Of a stretch of DNA of 64,000 nucleotides, positions 12,914-27,958 are shown one piece after another (positions within the stretch are counted from its first letter, which is position 1; every line of letters starts with the position of its first letter). Source of the stretch: a phage; sequence record PQ724392.1. One strand, written 5' to 3'. Position numbers and translations under genes: made by a program. The notes under the pieces are model-generated. The model saw only the letters and a list, made by a program, of their open reading frames with translations. It did not search any database and was not told the origin of the DNA.

Positions 12914-13486
12914 TCAGCTTGTTAATTCGAGCCAATGTTTTCTGCATAAAGATACGTACGATTCATTCCCACCGACTAACACTTGCTCGCCGTCCTTTAC
13001 AGCAGCACCGTCGATTACTCTCGCGGTCATGGTTGCTTTCCGGCCGCAATGACAGACGCCCTTTAATTCAACCAGTTTATCCGAAATAGCCAGAAGTCTG
13101 GCTGAACCGGGAAATAATTGACCCCGAAAATCTGTTCTTAACCCGTAACACATAACGGGGATATTGTAATTATCAACCACTTGAGCTAACTGGTCAATTT
13201 GCTCTGGTAACAAAAATTGAGCTTCATCGACCAGGACGCAATGGATATCCTTTTGAGACTCGGCCCATTTATAGAATTCAAACAGGTTCATGTCGGCCGT
13301 TACCAGGTTTGCTTCCTGGCTAATACCAATACGTGATTTAATTTCAGATTCCGAGTCCCGATTATCAATAACAGGTTTTAGCAAAAGCACACTCATTCCA
13401 CGCTCTTTATAGGAATAAGCTGCAGTCAGCAATGAAGCTGTTTTGCCTGCATTCATTGCTGCGTAATGATAAATTAAACTCGCCAT
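12914..13486 (-). CDS. tk: Thymidine kinase
   Basis: 190 aa; P-loop AMNAGKTASLL; zinc-ligand Cys in C-terminus. Confidence 0.9.
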   Translation of the reverse strand: MASLIYHYAAMNAGKTASLLTAAYSYKERGMSVLLLKPVIDNRDSESEIKSRIGISQEANLVTADMNLFEFYKWAESQKDIHCVLVDEAQFLLPEQIDQLAQVVDNYNIPVMCYGLRTDFRGQLFPGSARLLAISDKLVELKGVCHCGRKATMTARVIDGAAVKDGEQVLVGGNESYVSLCRKHWLELTS

Positions 13487-19990: not shown

Positions 19991-20219
19991 CGTCACGTTT
20001 CCATGATTGGTTAAAAATATCACTCATTAAAAATTCAAGTCTATTTTCCAATGAAGGGCTTTCACTACTAGAAACTTGAACCATGTAGTCAGAAATAGGT
20101 CGGAACATATCCAAGTCAGTTTCTAAATCATCTTTGATTTTCTCTTCTGGTGTTCCAGTGTCATAGGAATACAGATAAGAATCACATGACTCGGATTTAA
20201 TATAAATTGCAATACTCAT
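19983..20219 (-). CDS. hypothetical acidic protein
   Basis: 78-aa ORF. Confidence 0.45.
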   Translation of the reverse strand: MSIAIYIKSESCDSYLYSYDTGTPEEKIKDDLETDLDMFRPISDYMVQVSSSESPSLENRLEFLMSDIFNQSWKRDDE

Positions 20220-20803
20220 TTACGGCATTCCTCAATAAAGGAGTTCAATGTATTTTTCTTAGTGATATCGTCATATACCTTTTTAACTTTAGAAATACGA
20301 AAAGGTACTTCAATAACCATAGTCCATAAAAATGATGCAATAAGCCCAGCGAGAGCAGTAGAAAAGCACGCACCCATTACAGCTACAGGTGCTTCATTTT
20401 TGCCTGTCAAGAAAAACCACAGGAATGGTAAAAATAAGATTCCAGCCCAGGCATAAAACCTGGAACAAATTAACTTATCAAATTCATCACTCCAGGTACG
20501 AAATCCATATTTCTTGCTATAAGAAATTAATGGGTCGGGTGTCTGTTCTTTGAGCGGTTCTGGTTGATGCCCATTAATGATGTATCCCATTTTATATTCC
20601 TTAATTAAAAGCTCTTTCACATGACGATTGCATCGCGACCAATCAACATTTTCCACCTTGATTCCTTCATCACCATCATCAAGGTTCGCCCAATATTTTT
20701 TGGTAATCATAAATTCATCTCTTGATACAATTATACCTGCATTTTCTGCCCGGCGGATGAAGTTTACATCAACACCCATGCACCCGGGCTCATAAAGGGC
20801 CAT
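20216..20803 (-). CDS. membrane protein with FIEECRK C-terminal tail
   Basis: 195 aa; TM helices in C-terminal half. Confidence 0.55.
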   Translation of the reverse strand: MALYEPGCMGVDVNFIRRAENAGIIVSRDEFMITKKYWANLDDGDEGIKVENVDWSRCNRHVKELLIKEYKMGYIINGHQPEPLKEQTPDPLISYSKKYGFRTWSDEFDKLICSRFYAWAGILFLPFLWFFLTGKNEAPVAVMGACFSTALAGLIASFLWTMVIEVPFRISKVKKVYDDITKKNTLNSFIEECRK

Positions 20804-21489
20804 TACCAGCCCTCCATAGGGAATTCCAGATATACTTGAGCATTAACGCGGATTTCATTTGTAATCTTTTTAACACGGTCAGTATTACGAGACACACGAC
20901 CAAACCAGCGCCACCCGTTACTTACTGCGCGAGAACCTGTATGCCATGTCTGCCAATCAAACTGGAGCAATGTGCGGTCAGGAGCATCCCACTTGGTTAA
21001 TTCATTGGACTCAATTTTTTCCAGAACTTCTTTATGCCACTGACGATAGATAAGTTCGCCTTCAGGAATCTGACTAAATTGCGCAGTTCCGGTTGCAAAA
21101 TAAGTAGGACACACATCAGCGTTAACAAGACCAAGAATATGTTCAGAATGGTAACGAGGATTATCATAATCAGGTTGCCCTGCAGTAATAAAGTGTTGAC
21201 CAACCGGAATATCCGGGCGTGGTACATCGTCATGGTGATAACCTGGGATAGCAGGATACCAACCAGGCATCAGCATATGAACCCGAGAATCAAATACAAC
21301 CTGGTCGGTGTTCCAATCATCCGGCAAACTCATGATAAAGCTACGAGTAATAGGACCGCCATTGTCAAAAGCGAAAGCCAATGAGCTGTTGAAGAACATA
21401 GTTTCGTTTTTGATTTTATCATTAGAAATTTTACCAGCGAAACTGCCTACTGCATGAGCTTGAGAATTAAAAGTTTTTGGACCGTTCAT
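20803..21489 (-). CDS. hypothetical protein
   Basis: 228 aa, Trp/His-rich. Confidence 0.55.
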   Translation of the reverse strand: MNGPKTFNSQAHAVGSFAGKISNDKIKNETMFFNSSLAFAFDNGGPITRSFIMSLPDDWNTDQVVFDSRVHMLMPGWYPAIPGYHHDDVPRPDIPVGQHFITAGQPDYDNPRYHSEHILGLVNADVCPTYFATGTAQFSQIPEGELIYRQWHKEVLEKIESNELTKWDAPDRTLLQFDWQTWHTGSRAVSNGWRWFGRVSRNTDRVKKITNEIRVNAQVYLEFPMEGW

Positions 21490-21548
21490 AATATTTTCCT
21501 CATTGATTGTGGGACCATTGTGTCATAGTCCCACTTAGATGTACATAC

Positions 21549-22508
21549 TTATTTTGTGAAAGGACGAATTAAATGCTGGTTAGCTTTGAAACGTTTAACA
21601 TAGTCTTCGTGACCCAGGGTGTTGTACATATTAACCACTTCCTGGTAATGTTCCCAGGCATACTCGCGGAACCATCCAGAAGTAATGGAGGTGCAGACTT
21701 TTTCCAGCGCAATATGGAAGCTCACGGATGGAGAGATATTGAACTCATTGGGAACCTGCGAACGCTCCAGAGCGAGTACACATGCTTCTTCATAAACCCC
21801 TGCCAGTTTAATAATCTCAGGGAGTGCTTCAAATTTTTCACGCGAGGTCATAACTTCTGAATCATCCTTCATATAGAACTTATATGCAGGCTTATCAGCA
21901 AGCGCCACGGCCTCGTGGATGGAGTCATGGTCAAGGGTATAGATTGTATCATTAAAGAAAGTTTTCTTGCCCACGTCTAGTTTAGGGTGGCTATACGACA
22001 ATGTTTCTGCCTGGCGCTGCAGCATGATTTTCTGCAGTTCATCATTAAGAACAACACCCTTATTGCGAAGGTAATTAATATGACTCATGGTCTTCAGGAA
22101 GAATGGATTGTTCTTCAGGTAACGATGAGACAGTTTAATTGCCAGACAAATATCAGGAGTCGCCCAATAGAAACCTGTAAGACGGTCTTTCTTAATATGA
22201 TTTTCAGCGTATTTCAAGAGACGATAACTTGAGGTGAAATCTTCATCTTGAAGCTCACCAGTAATTTCTCGTACGTTAGTCAGGGCACGGACAATATAAG
22301 CTTCAAAATAGGTTTCTTTTCCATTGTACATACATTTAAAAGCTTGGACATCAGGGTTATCCACAGGAACATGAGCACCGAACATACGTGCTTTAAAGTG
22401 GTTCCAGGAGCCCTGGTCAGCGATAAAGTCCCAATCAGAGTTTTCAATTTTCTGACTTTCAATCAGACCAGCGTTATGTAATGCACGAGAACCAATAACT
22501 AACATCAT
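21549..22508 (-). CDS. hypothetical protein with possible nucleotidyltransferase-like N-terminus
   Basis: 319 aa; VIGSRAL...NSDWDFIA (GS then S-D-x-D). Confidence 0.55.
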   Translation of the reverse strand: MMLVIGSRALHNAGLIESQKIENSDWDFIADQGSWNHFKARMFGAHVPVDNPDVQAFKCMYNGKETYFEAYIVRALTNVREITGELQDEDFTSSYRLLKYAENHIKKDRLTGFYWATPDICLAIKLSHRYLKNNPFFLKTMSHINYLRNKGVVLNDELQKIMLQRQAETLSYSHPKLDVGKKTFFNDTIYTLDHDSIHEAVALADKPAYKFYMKDDSEVMTSREKFEALPEIIKLAGVYEEACVLALERSQVPNEFNISPSVSFHIALEKVCTSITSGWFREYAWEHYQEVVNMYNTLGHEDYVKRFKANQHLIRPFTK

Positions 22509-22521
22509 AATATTTTCCTCA

Positions 22522-22689
22522 TTAGTAAAGACGAGTTACTTCATATTTTCCAAGTGCCGATTTTTTCGCTTCAATTCGTGAGGCAGCAAGATTGGCGGCC
22601 TCTAGTGAAGAAAATTGAACCACTTGAGAAGTATTCTGTCTTACTCCACCTTGCGGGTGAGTGACAAAAACAATAAAAACATTATACAT
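22522..22689 (-). CDS. small hypothetical protein (55 aa)
   Basis: hand-translated; GAGGAAAA RBS. Confidence 0.35.
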   Translation of the reverse strand: MYNVFIVFVTHPQGGVRQNTSQVVQFSSLEAANLAASRIEAKKSALGKYEVTRLY

Positions 22690-22699
22690 AATATTTTCC

Positions 22700-22900
22700 T
22701 CAAATAATACCGTATGCGTAAATATCTCTTTTAATGCAGGAAACTACTTCTTCCAGAGAATCACAAACACGTTCTGTGACGCCTGCGTAATCACCACTGA
22801 TGGTTACTTTAATGCCATCAGAAACTTCCTGGAGATTAACCTCCAGTTGGTTGACTTTGGCTTCGTTCAGAACTTTGATTAATTCGTTTGCGATAGACAT
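22700..22900 (-). CDS. hypothetical protein
   Basis: 66-aa ORF. Confidence 0.45.
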   Translation of the reverse strand: MSIANELIKVLNEAKVNQLEVNLQEVSDGIKVTISGDYAGVTERVCDSLEEVVSCIKRDIYAYGII

Positions 22901-22964
22901 TTTTATTCTCCTGTTCTGATAACGTGATTGTCATCAGTTGATAGGAGTATAGTAACACAGTTTT

Positions 22965-23294
22965 TTAGACTTGTATACTGCTTCTACAATATTCTAAAAA
23001 TAATTTATCGTTGTCTACCTTATCCCAACGACGCCAAGATGGATTCCAGACCAGAGCGTTGTCACCGCAATCATTGAGCTTAAAGTGGTCGTAGTACATA
23101 GCTATATGTCTGGTTTCGTCACCAGAGAACCCCAGTATATGCTCACCGTGGGTATGATACATATGATGATGCATTGAGAGGTCGCATTTGTAAAACATCT
23201 CACGTTTACCACGAACGAACAAGAAGGCTTGCCCATTCATATAGAATTCTTTATCTGTTTTCAAAAGATATTTGAATACCGAATCTTTATGCAT
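22965..23294 (-). CDS. His-rich hypothetical protein (possible metal binding)
   Basis: ATG 23294 with AGGAGG RBS; HHHMYHTHGEH cluster. Confidence 0.5.
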   Translation of the reverse strand: MHKDSVFKYLLKTDKEFYMNGQAFLFVRGKREMFYKCDLSMHHHMYHTHGEHILGFSGDETRHIAMYYDHFKLNDCGDNALVWNPSWRRWDKVDNDKLFLEYCRSSIQV

Positions 23295-23324
23295 AATTCC
23301 TCCTACCACATCCTTGTGATTAAA

Positions 23325-23552
23325 TTATTTTCCTAACGAAATACGAGTAGGTTTTTTACCGAAATATTCTTCATAGGAACCATCTAAACGACCCGCTTTA
23401 GACCGACAATACGAATCATACTTTTTGTAATAAGTCAACTCGTTATTATAACGTGGATGTCTATCAGCCATAATAATACTTAATGGCCAACCTTTGGCAT
23501 AATCACGAAGACCATTTATTTTACGAATATATCTTTTCTTTAATTTTAGCAT
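23325..23552 (-). CDS. small basic hypothetical protein
   Basis: 75-aa ORF. Confidence 0.45.
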   Translation of the reverse strand: MLKLKKRYIRKINGLRDYAKGWPLSIIMADRHPRYNNELTYYKKYDSYCRSKAGRLDGSYEEYFGKKPTRISLGK

Positions 23553-23770
23553 GAGCTCGGGTGCCAGATTTTACCGTCAGGTTGAGCAACGAAGGTACGA
23601 CCAGCTTCTTCACCATAACAAGAGCTGTTCAGCCAGTCTTCAAGACGAACCTCACCATCATATTCGTCAAGCTCAATACCGAAATCTTGAGCGTTAGCCA
23701 TATCTTTTACTTTCTTATACAATGCAGCCAGTTCAAGTGCTGCTTTTTCTAATTCATTAATATCAGACAT
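23546..23770 (-). CDS. small acidic hypothetical protein
   Basis: 74-aa ORF. Confidence 0.45.
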   Translation of the reverse strand: MSDINELEKAALELAALYKKVKDMANAQDFGIELDEYDGEVRLEDWLNSSCYGEEAGRTFVAQPDGKIWHPSSC

Positions 23771-23779
23771 TTTTATTCC

Positions 23780-23992
23780 TTAGCATTCGTAAGAGGATGA
23801 TACCCAAGAGGTACCACTAATAGTAATACAACCGTTATAAAGCGTGATATGTCGTTCTAAGTCACGAACACCATCAATGTAGATATCAGCTTCTTCGCGT
23901 TCTTCTTTACAAATCTGGATAACGTTTTCAATAGCTGCCGCGGCAGTACGGATTGCACAATCTAATTCACGAGACATATAATTCCTTAACAT
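23780..23992 (-). CDS. small protein, WVSSSxxC-tail family member 1
   Basis: 70 aa ending WVSSSYEC. Confidence 0.5.
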   Translation of the reverse strand: MLRNYMSRELDCAIRTAAAAIENVIQICKEEREEADIYIDGVRDLERHITLYNGCITISGTSWVSSSYEC

Positions 23993-24267
23993 TCAGAAGA
24001 GGAGGACACCCAACCGCCATTTTCCAGGTCAGTTGTATAGTCATGAGTGTTAACAATAGCCCATTCAGGATGGCCATGTTCTTCCCAATGGGCAAGGTCA
24101 GCTTTCAAGGCACCAGGAGAATAATAGTCACCGCCCATACCGCGAGCAGGGTATATATTAAAATGAGTCTCATATTTGTTTGCAATTTCCTCGGCACGAC
24201 GAATAGCTTTATGGATATCATTTACTGCGTTAGCCAGTTCTTTATTTTTACGGTAATCATTCATCAT
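23986..24267 (-). CDS. small protein, WVSSSxxC-tail family member 2
   Basis: 93 aa ending WVSSSSEC. Confidence 0.5.
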   Translation of the reverse strand: MMNDYRKNKELANAVNDIHKAIRRAEEIANKYETHFNIYPARGMGGDYYSPGALKADLAHWEEHGHPEWAIVNTHDYTTDLENGGWVSSSSEC

Positions 24268-24276
24268 AGCGTTTCC

Positions 24277-24567
24277 TTAGCACATTGCCGAAGAGGAGAC
24301 CCAAGCACCAACTGTAACGACACCGTTTTCAACTTCGCCGCCGTTGTTTTCAATTTCATCTTTAAACCACTGGGAGCACTCATAACCGACAGGATAATAT
24401 GTACGGCCTGAACCATAATCACCGGTACCGAATTGGATACCATATTCATCTGCGATTTCTTCACAGTGTTTTTCAATTTCAGAGGTCTTATTTAGAAGAG
24501 AATAGATAGCTTTTTCTGCAGATTTCTCATCATAATACTTGGGGATAGCAATTTCAATTTTATTCAT
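24277..24567 (-). CDS. small protein, WVSSSxxC-tail family member 3
   Basis: 96 aa ending WVSSSAMC. Confidence 0.5.
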   Translation of the reverse strand: MNKIEIAIPKYYDEKSAEKAIYSLLNKTSEIEKHCEEIADEYGIQFGTGDYGSGRTYYPVGYECSQWFKDEIENNGGEVENGVVTVGAWVSSSAMC

Positions 24568-24917
24568 GATTTACATTCCTTAATAAAGGTTTCAAGGTCA
24601 TTACGTTTTGTTTTGTCTAGGAACTTATTATACTCAGCCATTGCTGAAGCATATCTCTTCCGACTAGGAGCATTCACGGCGTTTGTGTGACAAATATCAT
24701 ACACAACCGGGATAAAATAAGCCACAACAGCCGGAGCGATTATCATAAAGAAACCCATCTCAATGGGCATGACTCCCTCGATTGCAGCCATAACCGTGGT
24801 CATTACCAGACCAACCAAACCACCGAGCATACCGGTGACAATTCCCAATAATAAATTGCCGCCAATATCATATTCAGCCAATTGATAAACATGTGATGCA
24901 AGACTAGGCCGTTCCAT
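24564..24917 (-). CDS. membrane protein (2 TM) with FIKECKS tail
   Basis: ATG 24917 with AAGGAGG RBS. Confidence 0.5.
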   Translation of the reverse strand: MERPSLASHVYQLAEYDIGGNLLLGIVTGMLGGLVGLVMTTVMAAIEGVMPIEMGFFMIIAPAVVAYFIPVVYDICHTNAVNAPSRKRYASAMAEYNKFLDKTKRNDLETFIKECKS

Positions 24918-25299
24918 TACGAACCTCCTTAATAAATTCTTCGGCACATTTAATTTTGTGCTCTTCTTGTAGGGAAACACATTTTTGTTCCCACTCTTTA
25001 ACTCGCCCACGATATCCTTTATTCATATGATTTTGATGCCACACATTTATCAATATCATACTCAGGACCGTAATAAAAGGAGCTGCGATTATTAGCGCCC
25101 AGGCAACTCCAACACTGATGATATCCATATCCCCACAAAGCACCATCATTATAACCCCAACGATGCACATGGACAAAGCTCCAAATGGAGGCATAAGGTC
25201 TTTATCAATCTTGTCTGCGTATACAAATTTTTCTGGTTTACTTGGCAGATATAGCGTTCGCATTTTGAACCCCTTTAGCATATTCACGACATTCAGCAA
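24904..25299 (-). CDS. membrane protein (2 TM) with FIKEVR tail
   Basis: 131-aa ORF. Confidence 0.5.
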   Translation of the reverse strand: MLNVVNMLKGFKMRTLYLPSKPEKFVYADKIDKDLMPPFGALSMCIVGVIMMVLCGDMDIISVGVAWALIIAAPFITVLSMILINVWHQNHMNKGYRGRVKEWEQKCVSLQEEHKIKCAEEFIKEVRNGTA

Positions 25300-25810
25300 T
25301 AAAACGATTAAGCTTACGTTTCCGTTTACGACCCTCTAATGTATACTCAGCCGCCAAATCAAGAAGCTCATCTTTATCATAATTTTTAATATCAGTATAA
25401 GTTGGGCGGCGGTCAACCATTCCAAAGTGGTCACCATTTTCCAACATCAAATAACACACCAAATGGTCATCATCGTCCGCATTAATAAGCTGCTTATAAT
25501 CACTTGGTTCATTTAACGCATACACAGAATAACTCAGCCCAGCGAATTCCACTCGTTGAATACCCAGATTTACGTCAATAATTTCCAAGGCATCTGCAAA
25601 AGAAAGGTCTTCAGCTAAAGCAAAAATAAAAGGCAATTTGGTAGTATCGCCGCGACTTGTTGTTCTTCTTAAGAAATCATTGGAATAGCCCAAGTCGCGT
25701 CGGATTCTATAAAGAACTGTGTTAGTTTCAGTGGCAAGACCACTACCGCCAAACCATTCCACATTTGATAAAAGATTATCATATAAAGTCATAATTTTCT
25801 CCTCTCCCAA
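25238..25810 (-). CDS. hypothetical protein with FIAECR C-terminal motif
   Basis: 190-aa ORF; start may be internal. Confidence 0.5.
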   Translation of the reverse strand: MGEEKIMTLYDNLLSNVEWFGGSGLATETNTVLYRIRRDLGYSNDFLRRTTSRGDTTKLPFIFALAEDLSFADALEIIDVNLGIQRVEFAGLSYSVYALNEPSDYKQLINADDDDHLVCYLMLENGDHFGMVDRRPTYTDIKNYDKDELLDLAAEYTLEGRKRKRKLNRFIAECREYAKGVQNANAISAK

Positions 25811-25834: not shown

Positions 25835-26428
25835 TTACTTAAGTGAATTGATGTATTCTTCAATGTCAGCGGACGTGGTATCCACACCAACCTGTGGACC
25901 TTTGAAAGTTTCAACACGCATCAAGGTGTCTTCAATATCAATCTTAGTCAATGCAGCGATTTCAACAACATCATCTGCAGTCGCAATACCCAGGGCAGAT
26001 ACCTTACGGGTTTCGCGGATGTATTCCAGTTTAACAGCTAGTTCCTGACGAGAATCATCCAGCTCTTTAACTTTCAATTTAATTTCATTACGCATTTCAA
26101 CATAATCGTCTGCCTTCTTACGAAGTTGTTTAGCAGTGCGACGATACAGGAGACCCAGTTTAGCATGGACCTGGACATCCGCGCCATCAGCAATCAGTTT
26201 GCGGATTTCACGCTCTTTTGAGGCGGCGAGTTGGTCTTTTTCATTCGCTAACTCGCGGATGCGTTTTTCTTCATTAACAGACTTAACGTGGGCGGTCTGG
26301 AGCTCAGTAATCTTGTCAATCAGGGTAGACGCCGCTTGAGTATATTGGTCTTCAATAGACAGGTTTTTTGCCATTGCAGTACCCAGTTTGGAGCGGATGA
26401 ATTCAACAAGTTTCTTTAAAGTATTCAT
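25835..26428 (-). CDS. coiled-coil protein (weak PspA-like pattern)
   Basis: 197 aa, largely heptad-rich alpha-helical. Confidence 0.55.
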
Positions 26429-26889: not shown

Positions 26890-27333
26890 TTAAATTTCAA
26901 ATTCTTTGCGGAAGTTGGAAGCATAAGACTGAACTGATGCTTTGTTGAATCCAAACTCACGCACAATCATATCAATAACAGCTCTGCGAGCAGCACCATT
27001 AGACATATTAACAGTTTTGAACATATCATAGCATAAATCTTTGTTGCTCATACCGGAGCGTTTAGGTGCCTTACGTTCAGCTTTTGGTTCAGCTTTAGGA
27101 GTAGGTTTAACTTCTGGTTTAACCTGTCCATCATTCAGACCTTTAAAAATTTTACCTGCCAGAGTTGCCAGTTTAGCAGCTTCGCCACGAGTGATACCAA
27201 ATACTGCCGGGTTAAATGAAATACCTTCAGCTGCCAGACGTTTGAAGAACATACGTGCTGCGGATTGTGCTTCAGCTTCAGAAGAGTTGTTTAATGCCAG
27301 CTTAACGTACTTAACCAGTTTTGAAGTTTTCAT
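26890..27333 (-). CDS. hypothetical protein, paralog of 27415-27840
   Basis: 147 aa; shared tail GAARRAVID...VQSYASNFRK. Confidence 0.55.
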   Translation of the reverse strand: MKTSKLVKYVKLALNNSSEAEAQSAARMFFKRLAAEGISFNPAVFGITRGEAAKLATLAGKIFKGLNDGQVKPEVKPTPKAEPKAERKAPKRSGMSNKDLCYDMFKTVNMSNGAARRAVIDMIVREFGFNKASVQSYASNFRKEFEI

Positions 27334-27414: not shown

Positions 27415-27840
27415 TTATTTTTGAGCTTTGCGGAAGTTGGAAGCATATGACTGAACAACAGTCTTTTTGATATCATGGGTGTTAACCAGAACATCAATCA
27501 GGGCGCGTCGAGCTGCACCATCTGCCATATCAATTTCTGCAAATGCCTGGAAGCAAATGTCACGAGCATTACCAGATTTAGACTGGATTTTTTCTTCTTT
27601 AACTTCTTCAATTGGGAATTCAATCATTTCAGCTTGGATTAATTCAATGATAGATTCTTTTGACTGTTTGGTGTTTACCTTCAGTTCAGAATTAAGGGAC
27701 TTAGCGATGGCAACAATCTGGGTTGAAGTCAGATGAATAAGTGCATCTTCACGAATGCAGATTTCACATACTTCGTCGGCAACCATTTTGTTAGTGATGC
27801 GGGTAACAGAGAATGCAGAAGTCAGGGTCAGGAAGTTCAT
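27415..27840 (-). CDS. hypothetical protein, paralog of 26890-27333
   Basis: ATG 27840 with GGAG RBS; shared C-terminal tail. Confidence 0.55.
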   Translation of the reverse strand: MNFLTLTSAFSVTRITNKMVADEVCEICIREDALIHLTSTQIVAIAKSLNSELKVNTKQSKESIIELIQAEMIEFPIEEVKEEKIQSKSGNARDICFQAFAEIDMADGAARRALIDVLVNTHDIKKTVVQSYASNFRKAQK

Positions 27841-27891
27841 TTTATTTCTCCAAAGTTTTGTTTGATTCAGTGTGTAACTCAGTATGGAATC

Positions 27892-27920
27892 ATTATGCAT
27901 CCAGTCAATTCGGATGTACA
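27892..27920 (-). promoter_or_regulatory. early promoter (TGTACA, 17 nt, CATAAT) in conserved leader cassette
   Basis: third copy of the conserved leader. Confidence 0.5.
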
Positions 27921-27958
27921 CTACTTTTTGAAGAAAATTTCAAATTTATTCGGGGTAT

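Follow-up and report, generated by a model that had tools for sequence, protein, structure and literature searches.

We analysed a 64,000-nucleotide stretch of phage DNA (sequence record PQ724392.1; "the window" refers to this whole stretch) for a short C-terminal peptide, called here the tail, that is common to the products of minus-strand genes equivalent to the bacteriophage T4 genes e.2, e.3, e.4 and e.5. The tail is conserved at the protein level in T4-type phages, is restricted to the gene cluster that follows gene e.6 and is predicted to be cytoplasmic. A notable new context for it is the product of e.6 itself, a previously unrecognised phage PspA/Vipp1-like protein that heads the cluster. 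From sequence comparison and by analogy with PspA systems we propose, as a plausible reading that falls somewhat short of probable, that the tail is a common docking helix that would link its carriers to a shared cytoplasmic partner, most likely e.6, in a phage Psp-like module. T4 is among the best-studied viruses, and e.2 to e.6 have been called 'hypothetical' since its genome sequence became available; should the tail dock its carriers onto a phage PspA-like protein, at least five orphan genes per genome would gain a common function that can be tested.

A terminal motif on proteins encoded downstream of e.6

The original prediction had placed a near-identical terminal motif on four open reading frames (ORFs), described them as a membrane-protein family of otherwise divergent scaffolds, and suggested that the motif might be a common docking or regulatory peptide, for example in exclusion or lysis control. 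The four ORFs are present on the minus strand with the 3' ends and tails attributed to them, and the annotation of SP18 and T4, PHROG matches and BLAST identify them as orthologues or positional equivalents of T4 e.2, e.3, e.4 and e.5. One of them, e.4, has Val in the place of Cys (the ORF with its 3' end at 24904 had been quoted with the ending ...EEFIKEVRNGTA). The region is 93-98% identical to Gaprivervirus-type T4 relatives (ECML-359, SP18), all genes between approximately 18.7 and 28 kb of the window lie on its minus strand, and its e.2-e.6 genes are orthologous to those of T4 (PHROGs 2203, 2330, 2604, 8788 and 1203) and in identical order, e.2-e.5 lying between e.6 on the upstream side and nudE and the lysozyme gene e on the downstream side, with about 3.7 kb of additional genes between e.3 and e.2 relative to T4.

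The motif-anchored consensus is [LFIV]-[EN]-x-F-[IV]-x-x-C-R, conserved from T4 to Aeromonas-phage relatives. In a non-overlapping set of 116 window ORFs (20,504 residues) three matches to the pattern F[IV]xxC[RK] lie 22 residues or less from a C-terminus and none is internal; shuffling the ORFs gives an expectation of 0.025 and none of 2,000 shuffles reaches three, which excludes a chance occurrence. The same concentration at protein ends is seen in 35 loci of T4-type phages (1,183 coding-strand ORFs, 148,287 residues), where the motif is found 112 times at 20 residues or less from the C-terminus versus eight times internally, and where all terminal occurrences except one lie downstream of e.6. 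Each T4-type lineage sampled among the e.6-centred viral contig loci encodes one to six proteins with a terminal motif. Indexed homologue searches gave close relatives only, and the diversity of the sample comes from loci fetched with e.6 and from the contexts of distant e.6 homologues; genes in these related loci are simple ORF calls and their transmembrane (TM) segments are predicted from hydropathy alone. Conservation also extends to the orthologues in T4, in which e.3 (...EFVIDCRKIK), e.4 (...KFVKESRCKSQS) and e.5 (...KFVKECREYVKAITIPSK) keep the motif. A scan of 134 kb of T4, which left out the 71.5-121 kb late-gene block, found the tail only in e.3, in e.5 and in the 3' end of e.2, which is detached as a fragment of 36 codons, and in the 64-kb window the tail is confined to the e.6-downstream cluster. 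The T4 scan thus makes the tail a property of this cluster and rules out a general tail of T4 early proteins. The motif can also be used in practice as a marker for more members of the module in T4-type genomes.

Two side observations were made in these scans. Compared with an intact T-even e.2 gene, the T4 reference e.2 (L003, NC_000866, 67472-67960) has a 1-nt deletion and, about 90 nt further on, a 1-nt insertion; a stop codon between the two cuts the annotated e.2 to 102 amino acids (aa), and the tail-coding end (NLNNFITECRKLK) is left unannotated in the gap before nudE. These changes could be a genuine lesion or an old sequencing error. In the window, a 190-aa ORF (12914-13486, minus strand) ends with ...YVSLCRKHWLELTS; its resemblance to the tail is probably due to chance, since it matches the loosest form of the motif only and lies about 7 kb from the cluster.

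The carriers of the tail form about 25 BLAST-distinct clusters, roughly half of them two-helix membrane proteins and half soluble proteins. Hydropathy agrees with the earlier count of at least two TM segments in three of the ORFs, as it gives two each in e.2, e.3 and e.4; in e.5 no hydrophobic segment passes the threshold, and several other carriers are also soluble, so that the carriers are not purely a membrane-protein family. Among the soluble ones is a fifth carrier in the window (22965-23294, terminal sequence also given as ...KLFLEYCRSSIQV) that was absent from the original list and belongs to a cluster (cluster 4) of seven orthologues, all of which have FLEYCRS. The motif is followed by 1-3 residues in membrane carriers and by 5-15 residues, with an extra hydrophobic residue at +8, in soluble carriers. 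The hydrophobic residues at -3, 0, +1 and +4 make up a single helix face. In the e.4 family Val, Ile, Met, Leu or Ser occupies the Cys position; that Ala, Thr or Val can stand in for Cys speaks against redox or metal chemistry and favours a small residue that would be packed in a helix-helix interface.

Similarity beyond the tail was found among the membrane carriers. PHROG profiles cross-match e.3 to the e.2 family (phrog_2203, E = 0.002, residues 38-116) and e.4 to the e.3 family (phrog_2330, E = 0.003), and hhalign aligns the membrane families over up to 109 columns. Because these matches cover the entire two-helix-plus-tail module, the membrane carriers e.2, e.3 and e.4 are remote paralogues, and common descent accounts for part of their likeness. 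Alignments of membrane with soluble families, in contrast, are limited to 10-15 tail columns and most of their probabilities collapse when the tail is removed. In an alignment of 12 e.5 sequences that are 12-24% identical, the only invariant residues are M1, N94, F164, C168 and R169. The tail-only alignment and the invariance of the tail in e.5 show that the tail is a module under a constraint of its own, carried by unrelated scaffolds; the cluster count and these two observations give it one property of a short linear docking motif, a conserved peptide common to otherwise unrelated proteins.

The same terminal segment is also likely to lie in the cytoplasm. In all two-helix carriers the loop between the helices has 3-16 residues with 0-2 Lys/Arg, whereas the C-terminal segment has 33-54 residues with 8-13 Lys/Arg (nine in the C-terminal segment versus none in the loop for the e.3 of the window). 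According to the positive-inside rule, both ends of the carriers, and hence the tail, are predicted to be cytoplasmic.

The e.6 protein and its linkage to the tail

In the window e.6 is annotated as a conserved hypothetical protein only, and its relatives are tagged 'uncharacterized' in the viral structure library BFVD. An exhaustive representative search retrieved 36 relatives, nearly all of 195-205 residues. A profile built from 26 homologues matches Vipp1 and PspA chains of the PDB with E = 8.8e-5 to 2.6e-3, always over positions 1-141 versus 1-142, and the Pfam family PF04012 (PspA_IM30) is matched by four of the 26 members (best E = 8.9e-10), no other Pfam family being matched by more than one; precomputed PF04012 matches also exist for two relatives (P0068, P0070). 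The AlphaFold2 (AF2) model of e.6 (predicted local distance difference test, pLDDT, 85; predicted template modelling score, pTM, 0.67) has helices at residues 2-22, 25-80 and 86-145, that is, the N-terminal helix and long alpha-helical hairpin of the ESCRT-III fold. When this model is compared with the PDB by Foldseek, the top ten matches are all Vipp1 or PspA (E from 5.5e-4, probability 1.00), followed by the archaeal ESCRT-III protein CdvB2; the best local fit, to 6zvs_A, has a TM-score of 0.70 (target-normalised) and 3.0 A over 122 columns. Profile, Pfam and fold evidence together indicate that e.6 is a distant member of the PspA/Vipp1 (ESCRT-III) family. A literature search, of partial coverage so that an earlier description elsewhere is possible, gave nothing on e.2-e.6, on the shared tail or on a T4 PspA homologue. 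The extreme C-terminus of e.6 itself (...EYINSLK) is strongly conserved throughout the family, with Tyr192 nearly invariant, and might constitute a separate motif.

In 32 of 41 distinct loci the strict tail is found on the product of the gene directly after e.6; most of the exceptions have a frameshifted e.5 or a form of the motif specific to their lineage. Distant e.6 homologues, which are 21-30% identical, lie in varying neighbourhoods (nrdD/nrdG, a DnaB-type helicase, nudE or frd.1-like genes) and are still followed by tail carriers, in which the residue types have been switched jointly in all carriers of a genome: the tails are of the type Y-I-x-x-C-R/K in two loci (L061, L070) and of the type I-[ILV]-x-x-A/T-R in three others (L063, L065, L071), on one to four proteins each and on up to four consecutive ones. 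Matches to a relaxed pattern, which was deliberately loose, are over-represented in the genes at +1 to +4 from e.6 (13/36 versus 8/67, p = 0.005).

Selection at the protein level (see below), unrelated scaffolds, a predicted cytoplasmic site and a concerted change lend indirect support to the suggestion of a docking or regulatory peptide and make it the best-supported reading. The leading candidate for the partner is e.6, because it is the sole invariant, tightly linked neighbour of the carriers and because recruitment by small membrane proteins is known for members of the PspA family. In Yersinia, the polytopic PspC binds PspA through its cytoplasmic C-terminal domain (PMC5596341), and in Bacillus subtilis LiaI brings LiaH to the membrane (PMC7619361). 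The phage cluster resembles the PspA-PspB/PspC systems of Escherichia coli and Yersinia enterocolitica in that a PspA-family gene adjoins genes for small inner-membrane proteins. In e.2, e.3 and e.4, two hydrophobic segments are joined by a short loop without charges and followed by a basic C-terminal segment, an architecture that would suit a membrane partner of a PspA homologue, and both ends are predicted to be cytoplasmic. The differences are that some phage carriers are soluble, that one genome may encode as many as six carriers, that no PspF-type regulator is present and that the relationship of e.6 to E. coli PspA is distant. The likeness to LiaH-LiaI of Bacillus subtilis is the recruitment of a PspA homologue by a small membrane protein, but the carriers are not detectably related to LiaI, for which we know of no description of a C-terminal peptide shared across several unrelated carriers. 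In ESCRT-III, short C-terminal amphipathic MIM helices are modular docking motifs for MIT domains; there the eukaryotic motif is on the ESCRT-III subunit and binds an ATPase adaptor, whereas the phage motif is on the putative partners, and the sequence pattern of the phage tail is unrelated.

In our best reading the tail, with the pattern [LFIV]-[EN]-x-F-[IV]-x-x-(C or other small/hydrophobic)-(R/K), is a short amphipathic helix on the cytoplasmic side, placed at or near the C-terminus and maintained by protein-level selection. It marks a phage accessory set made of two-helix inner-membrane proteins (e.2, e.3, e.4 and paralogues), of e.5 and of several small soluble proteins. As the most likely mechanism we infer that membrane-embedded carriers would bring a shared cytoplasmic partner, with e.6 as the leading candidate, to the inner membrane or hold it there, and that e.5 and other soluble carriers would enter the same assembly. 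The entire assembly would amount to a Psp-like module of the phage, by which the host inner membrane is maintained or remodelled in the course of infection. A virus would then possess its own form of the 'phage shock' machinery that protects the host membrane, fitted with modular adaptors, which would bear on the upkeep of the host membrane by the phage until lysis, and may bear on resistance to defences that kill the cell through membrane collapse. A more elaborate version, possible although we consider it doubtful, is that T4-type phages have their own ESCRT-III/PspA-type system, in which an e.6 polymer would be directed to the inner membrane by an exchangeable set of small membrane adaptors (e.2, e.3, e.4 and their paralogues) together with soluble proteins such as e.5, each plugging in via the same C-terminal helix, with an adaptor code that co-evolves with e.6 and with cassettes gained and lost at gene junctions. 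The phage could thereby sustain an energised membrane in the face of abortive-infection defences that depolarise it, or while lysis is inhibited. As for the exclusion or lysis control mentioned in the original prediction, a Pfam scan of the four ORF proteins gave no holin match and, among exclusion families, SieB at E = 0.17, far below the cut-off, and the T4 holin t, imm and sp genes are located elsewhere in the T4 genome, apart from e.2-e.6; no finding from these family scans and gene positions ties the tail to either process.

Several observations weigh against a docking helix for e.6. Searched by itself against Pfam, the e.6 of the window gives nothing at E <= 0.1; its global Foldseek TM-scores are 0.42-0.51, with a large root-mean-square deviation, and hhalign gives a weak match (21% probability) to the single E. 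coli PspA sequence, which is why e.6 is called a distant member of the family. A Pfam scan (E <= 1) of e.2, e.3 and e.4 gave no match to the PspC, PspB or LiaI families, and the motif is not present in the host PspB and PspC C-termini that were checked, which also led us to reject a mimicry of host tails; for these reasons our proposal is that the carriers work like PspC, PspB or LiaI, not that they are members of these families. Gene order in T4-type phages is broadly conserved, so that adjacency alone is weak evidence, and in two of the loci with distant e.6 homologues (L060, L072) there is no clear tail next to e.6. Since the loci were ascertained via e.6, the statement that a carrier implies e.6 comes from the T4 and window scans alone. 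The concerted tails of one genome could have originated by lineage-specific duplication or by binding of tails to one another. Finally, the e.5 model, which places the tail within a long helix, is of low confidence (pLDDT 40), and being unusable was kept out of the fold search; the e.5 profile gave no matches in the PDB.

Selection on the tail and other explanations

A nucleic-acid origin needed testing because in e.2, e.3 and e.4 the tail-coding segment runs into the ribosome-binding site (RBS) and start codon of the next gene: in the window, the x-E codons of their motifs (GAGGAA, AAGGAA, AAGGAG) are also that RBS, and stop and start codons overlap. The tail could in that case be the translated Shine-Dalgarno/start context of an overlapping gene, or the by-product of another RNA or DNA signal, and some overlap is indeed found in 54 of 88 contexts, while junction sequences act as recombination points. 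Codon usage speaks against it. Over 93 distinct DNA contexts, Cys is encoded by TGC 48 times and by TGT 45 times, Arg by codons of both families (CGT 27, AGA 27, AGG 15, CGC 8, CGA 8, CGG 1), and the Phe, Ile and Val codons are also variable; the next ATG is 11-167 nt from the motif. In 34 of the 88 contexts the RBS window is outside the motif; in T4 e.3 the RBS is on C-R-K instead of x-E, and in the e.5 of the window the motif is not the RBS of the next gene, which is an AAAGGGG further downstream. Free codon variation, variable spacing and an RBS that is often outside the motif show that selection on the tail acts on amino acids and not on DNA. We consequently dismissed an origin in RBS or translational coupling, on codon usage, spacing and the register shift of T4 e.3, as well as a DNA repeat or mobile cassette at the tails, since a repeat search of the DNA at the tails found no repeat family; a nucleic-acid by-product is largely refuted and in our view scarcely credible.

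Other explanations are at the protein level. The carriers might form homo- or hetero-oligomers through a C-terminal helix bundle, with e.6 a mere neighbour or acting downstream: the heptad-like hydrophobic stripe suits bundling, several carriers are possible per genome, and mutual binding would also yield a concerted change of tails within a genome. This reading seems unlikely, as it leaves the tight linkage of carriers to e.6 across differing neighbourhoods unexplained, and as the Aeromonas-phage-type lineages keep a single carrier (e.5) beside e.6, which would permit homo-oligomerisation only. It is also rather improbable that the tail is a remnant of descent, the slowest-evolving piece of one ancestral gene that underwent tandem duplication and fusion, with no shared partner. 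The tandem, overlapping arrangement of the genes, the gain and loss of cassettes at their junctions and the matches that join the membrane families over the full module agree with such a history, but it fails to account for the lack of any detectable likeness between membrane and soluble carriers beyond the 10-15 tail columns, for tail residues that are nearly the sole invariants of e.5 and point to a specific constraint, and for the joint switch of residues across the carriers of a lineage, hard to explain without a common constraint. T4 encodes arginine-specific ADP-ribosyltransferases, and a regulatory or processing signal, either a degron recognised by a host protease or a covalently modified residue (thiol chemistry on Cys, or ADP-ribosylation of Arg by Alt or Mod), would fit the position near the C-terminus, the basic residues past the motif in membrane carriers and the invariance of Cys-Arg in enterobacterial lineages. 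We consider it quite improbable given the distance of the motif to the C-terminus, which ranges from 1 to 24 residues across carriers, unlike signals anchored on the terminal carboxylate, and given the replacements of Cys in the e.4 family and, by Ala or Thr, in entire lineages, which speak against thiol chemistry. A site for the gp21 prohead protease (L/I-x-E) was rejected, as the residue that precedes Cys is variable.

Gene coordinates and neighbouring genes

The positions of the cluster genes, of their predicted TM segments and of the tail motifs are given in Table 1, in which the ATGs annotated in SP18 were taken as the better start codons for e.4 (25263, not 25299) and e.5 (25792, not 25810). 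In e.2 the family profile begins at Met32, and a soluble domain is N-terminal to the TM segments. The e.4 proteins of the window and of T4 are 31% identical, and the e.3-position gene has a weak BLAST match to T4 e.3 (E = 4e-6).

Table 1. Genes of the e.2-e.6 cluster in the window, with TM segments predicted by Kyte-Doolittle hydropathy and tail motifs
Feature	Position	Strand	Remarks
e.6 orthologue, 197 aa, PspA/Vipp1-like helical-hairpin protein, proposed partner	25835..26428	-	75% identity to T4 e.6
e.5 orthologue, 184 aa, soluble, C-terminus ...LNRFIAECREYAKGVQNANAISAK	25238..25792	-	phrog_8788, E = 8e-111; T4 e.5 position
e.5 tail motif LNRFIAECR, residues 161-169	25286..25312	-	
e.4 orthologue, 119 aa, C-terminus ...AEEFIKEVRNGTA (Val replaces Cys)	24904..25263	-	phrog_2604, E = 5e-45
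e.4 TM segments, residues 26-44 and 54-72	25132-25188, 25048-25104	-	Kyte-Doolittle hydropathy
e.4 tail motif AEEFIKEVR, residues 107-115	24919..24945	-	overlaps e.3 RBS TAAGGAGGT
e.3-position gene, 117 aa, C-terminus ...LETFIKECKS	24564..24917	-	phrog_2330, E = 1e-45
e.3 TM segments, residues 22-40 and 54-72	24798-24854, 24702-24758	-	Kyte-Doolittle hydropathy
e.3 tail motif LETFIKECK, residues 108-116	24570..24596	-	
Fifth carrier, soluble, 109 aa, C-terminus ...DKLFLEYCRSSIQV	22965..23294	-	motif at nt 22983-23009
e.2 orthologue, 195 aa, C-terminus ...LNSFIEECRK	20216..20803	-	phrog_2203 'membrane protein', E = 4e-65; annotated e.2 in SP18
e.2 TM segments, residues 116-134 and 140-158	20402-20458, 20330-20386	-	Kyte-Doolittle hydropathy
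e.2 tail motif LNSFIEECR, residues 186-194	20222..20248	-	

A Pfam scan of the four ORF proteins (hmmscan, E <= 1) gave sub-threshold, unrelated matches only (AIRC, PEN-2, A13L, SieB, DUF3487), the PHROG families of e.2-e.5 are labelled 'unknown function' or 'membrane protein', and T4 e.2-e.6 are annotated as hypothetical or merely as 'membrane protein'. The automated annotation of the record PQ341120 (L002) names the same genes 'holin' (e.2), 'MotA-ExbB domain' (e.3), 'type IV secretion system protein VirB3' (e.4) and 'ubiquitinyl hydrolase 1' (e.5), and its labels there also include 'antitoxin', 'transposase' and 'malate synthase'. For e.2-e.5 the Pfam and PHROG scans back no such label, and these names should not be propagated.

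The e.4 gene is a cassette, JS98-like relatives being without it (L030, 8134-8194). Their e.5/e.3 junction fuses the equivalents of the e.5/e.4 junction (approximately 25255-25275 in the window) and of the e.4/e.3 junction (approximately 24904-24930), two similar RBS/ATG sequences with 11 of 16 nt identical, and the product is a hybrid tail, ECREYAKEVQNGTA. This hybrid junction indicates that genes of the cluster are gained or lost via recombination at gene junctions.

Two other groups of paralogues are found close to the cluster. Between 23546 and 24567 on the minus strand lie tandem genes for small soluble paralogues (phrog_899, phrog_4882) that end in a second motif, W-[VI]-S-S-S-x-x-C-stop (GAWVSSSAMC, GGWVSSSSEC, TSWVSSSYEC and a shorter KIWHPSSC). 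They are present in 3-6 copies in nearly all related loci and adjoin a 319-aa DUF7277+DUF7275 protein (21549-22508) and a 228-aa protein (20803-21489); the small paralogues may be a family of substrates or precursors for a modifying enzyme. Upstream of e.6, two adjacent minus-strand paralogues (26890-27333 and 27415-27921; family matches phrog_18416, 9997 and 17275) have in common a C-terminal domain of about 60 residues that ends with ...VQSYASNFRK.

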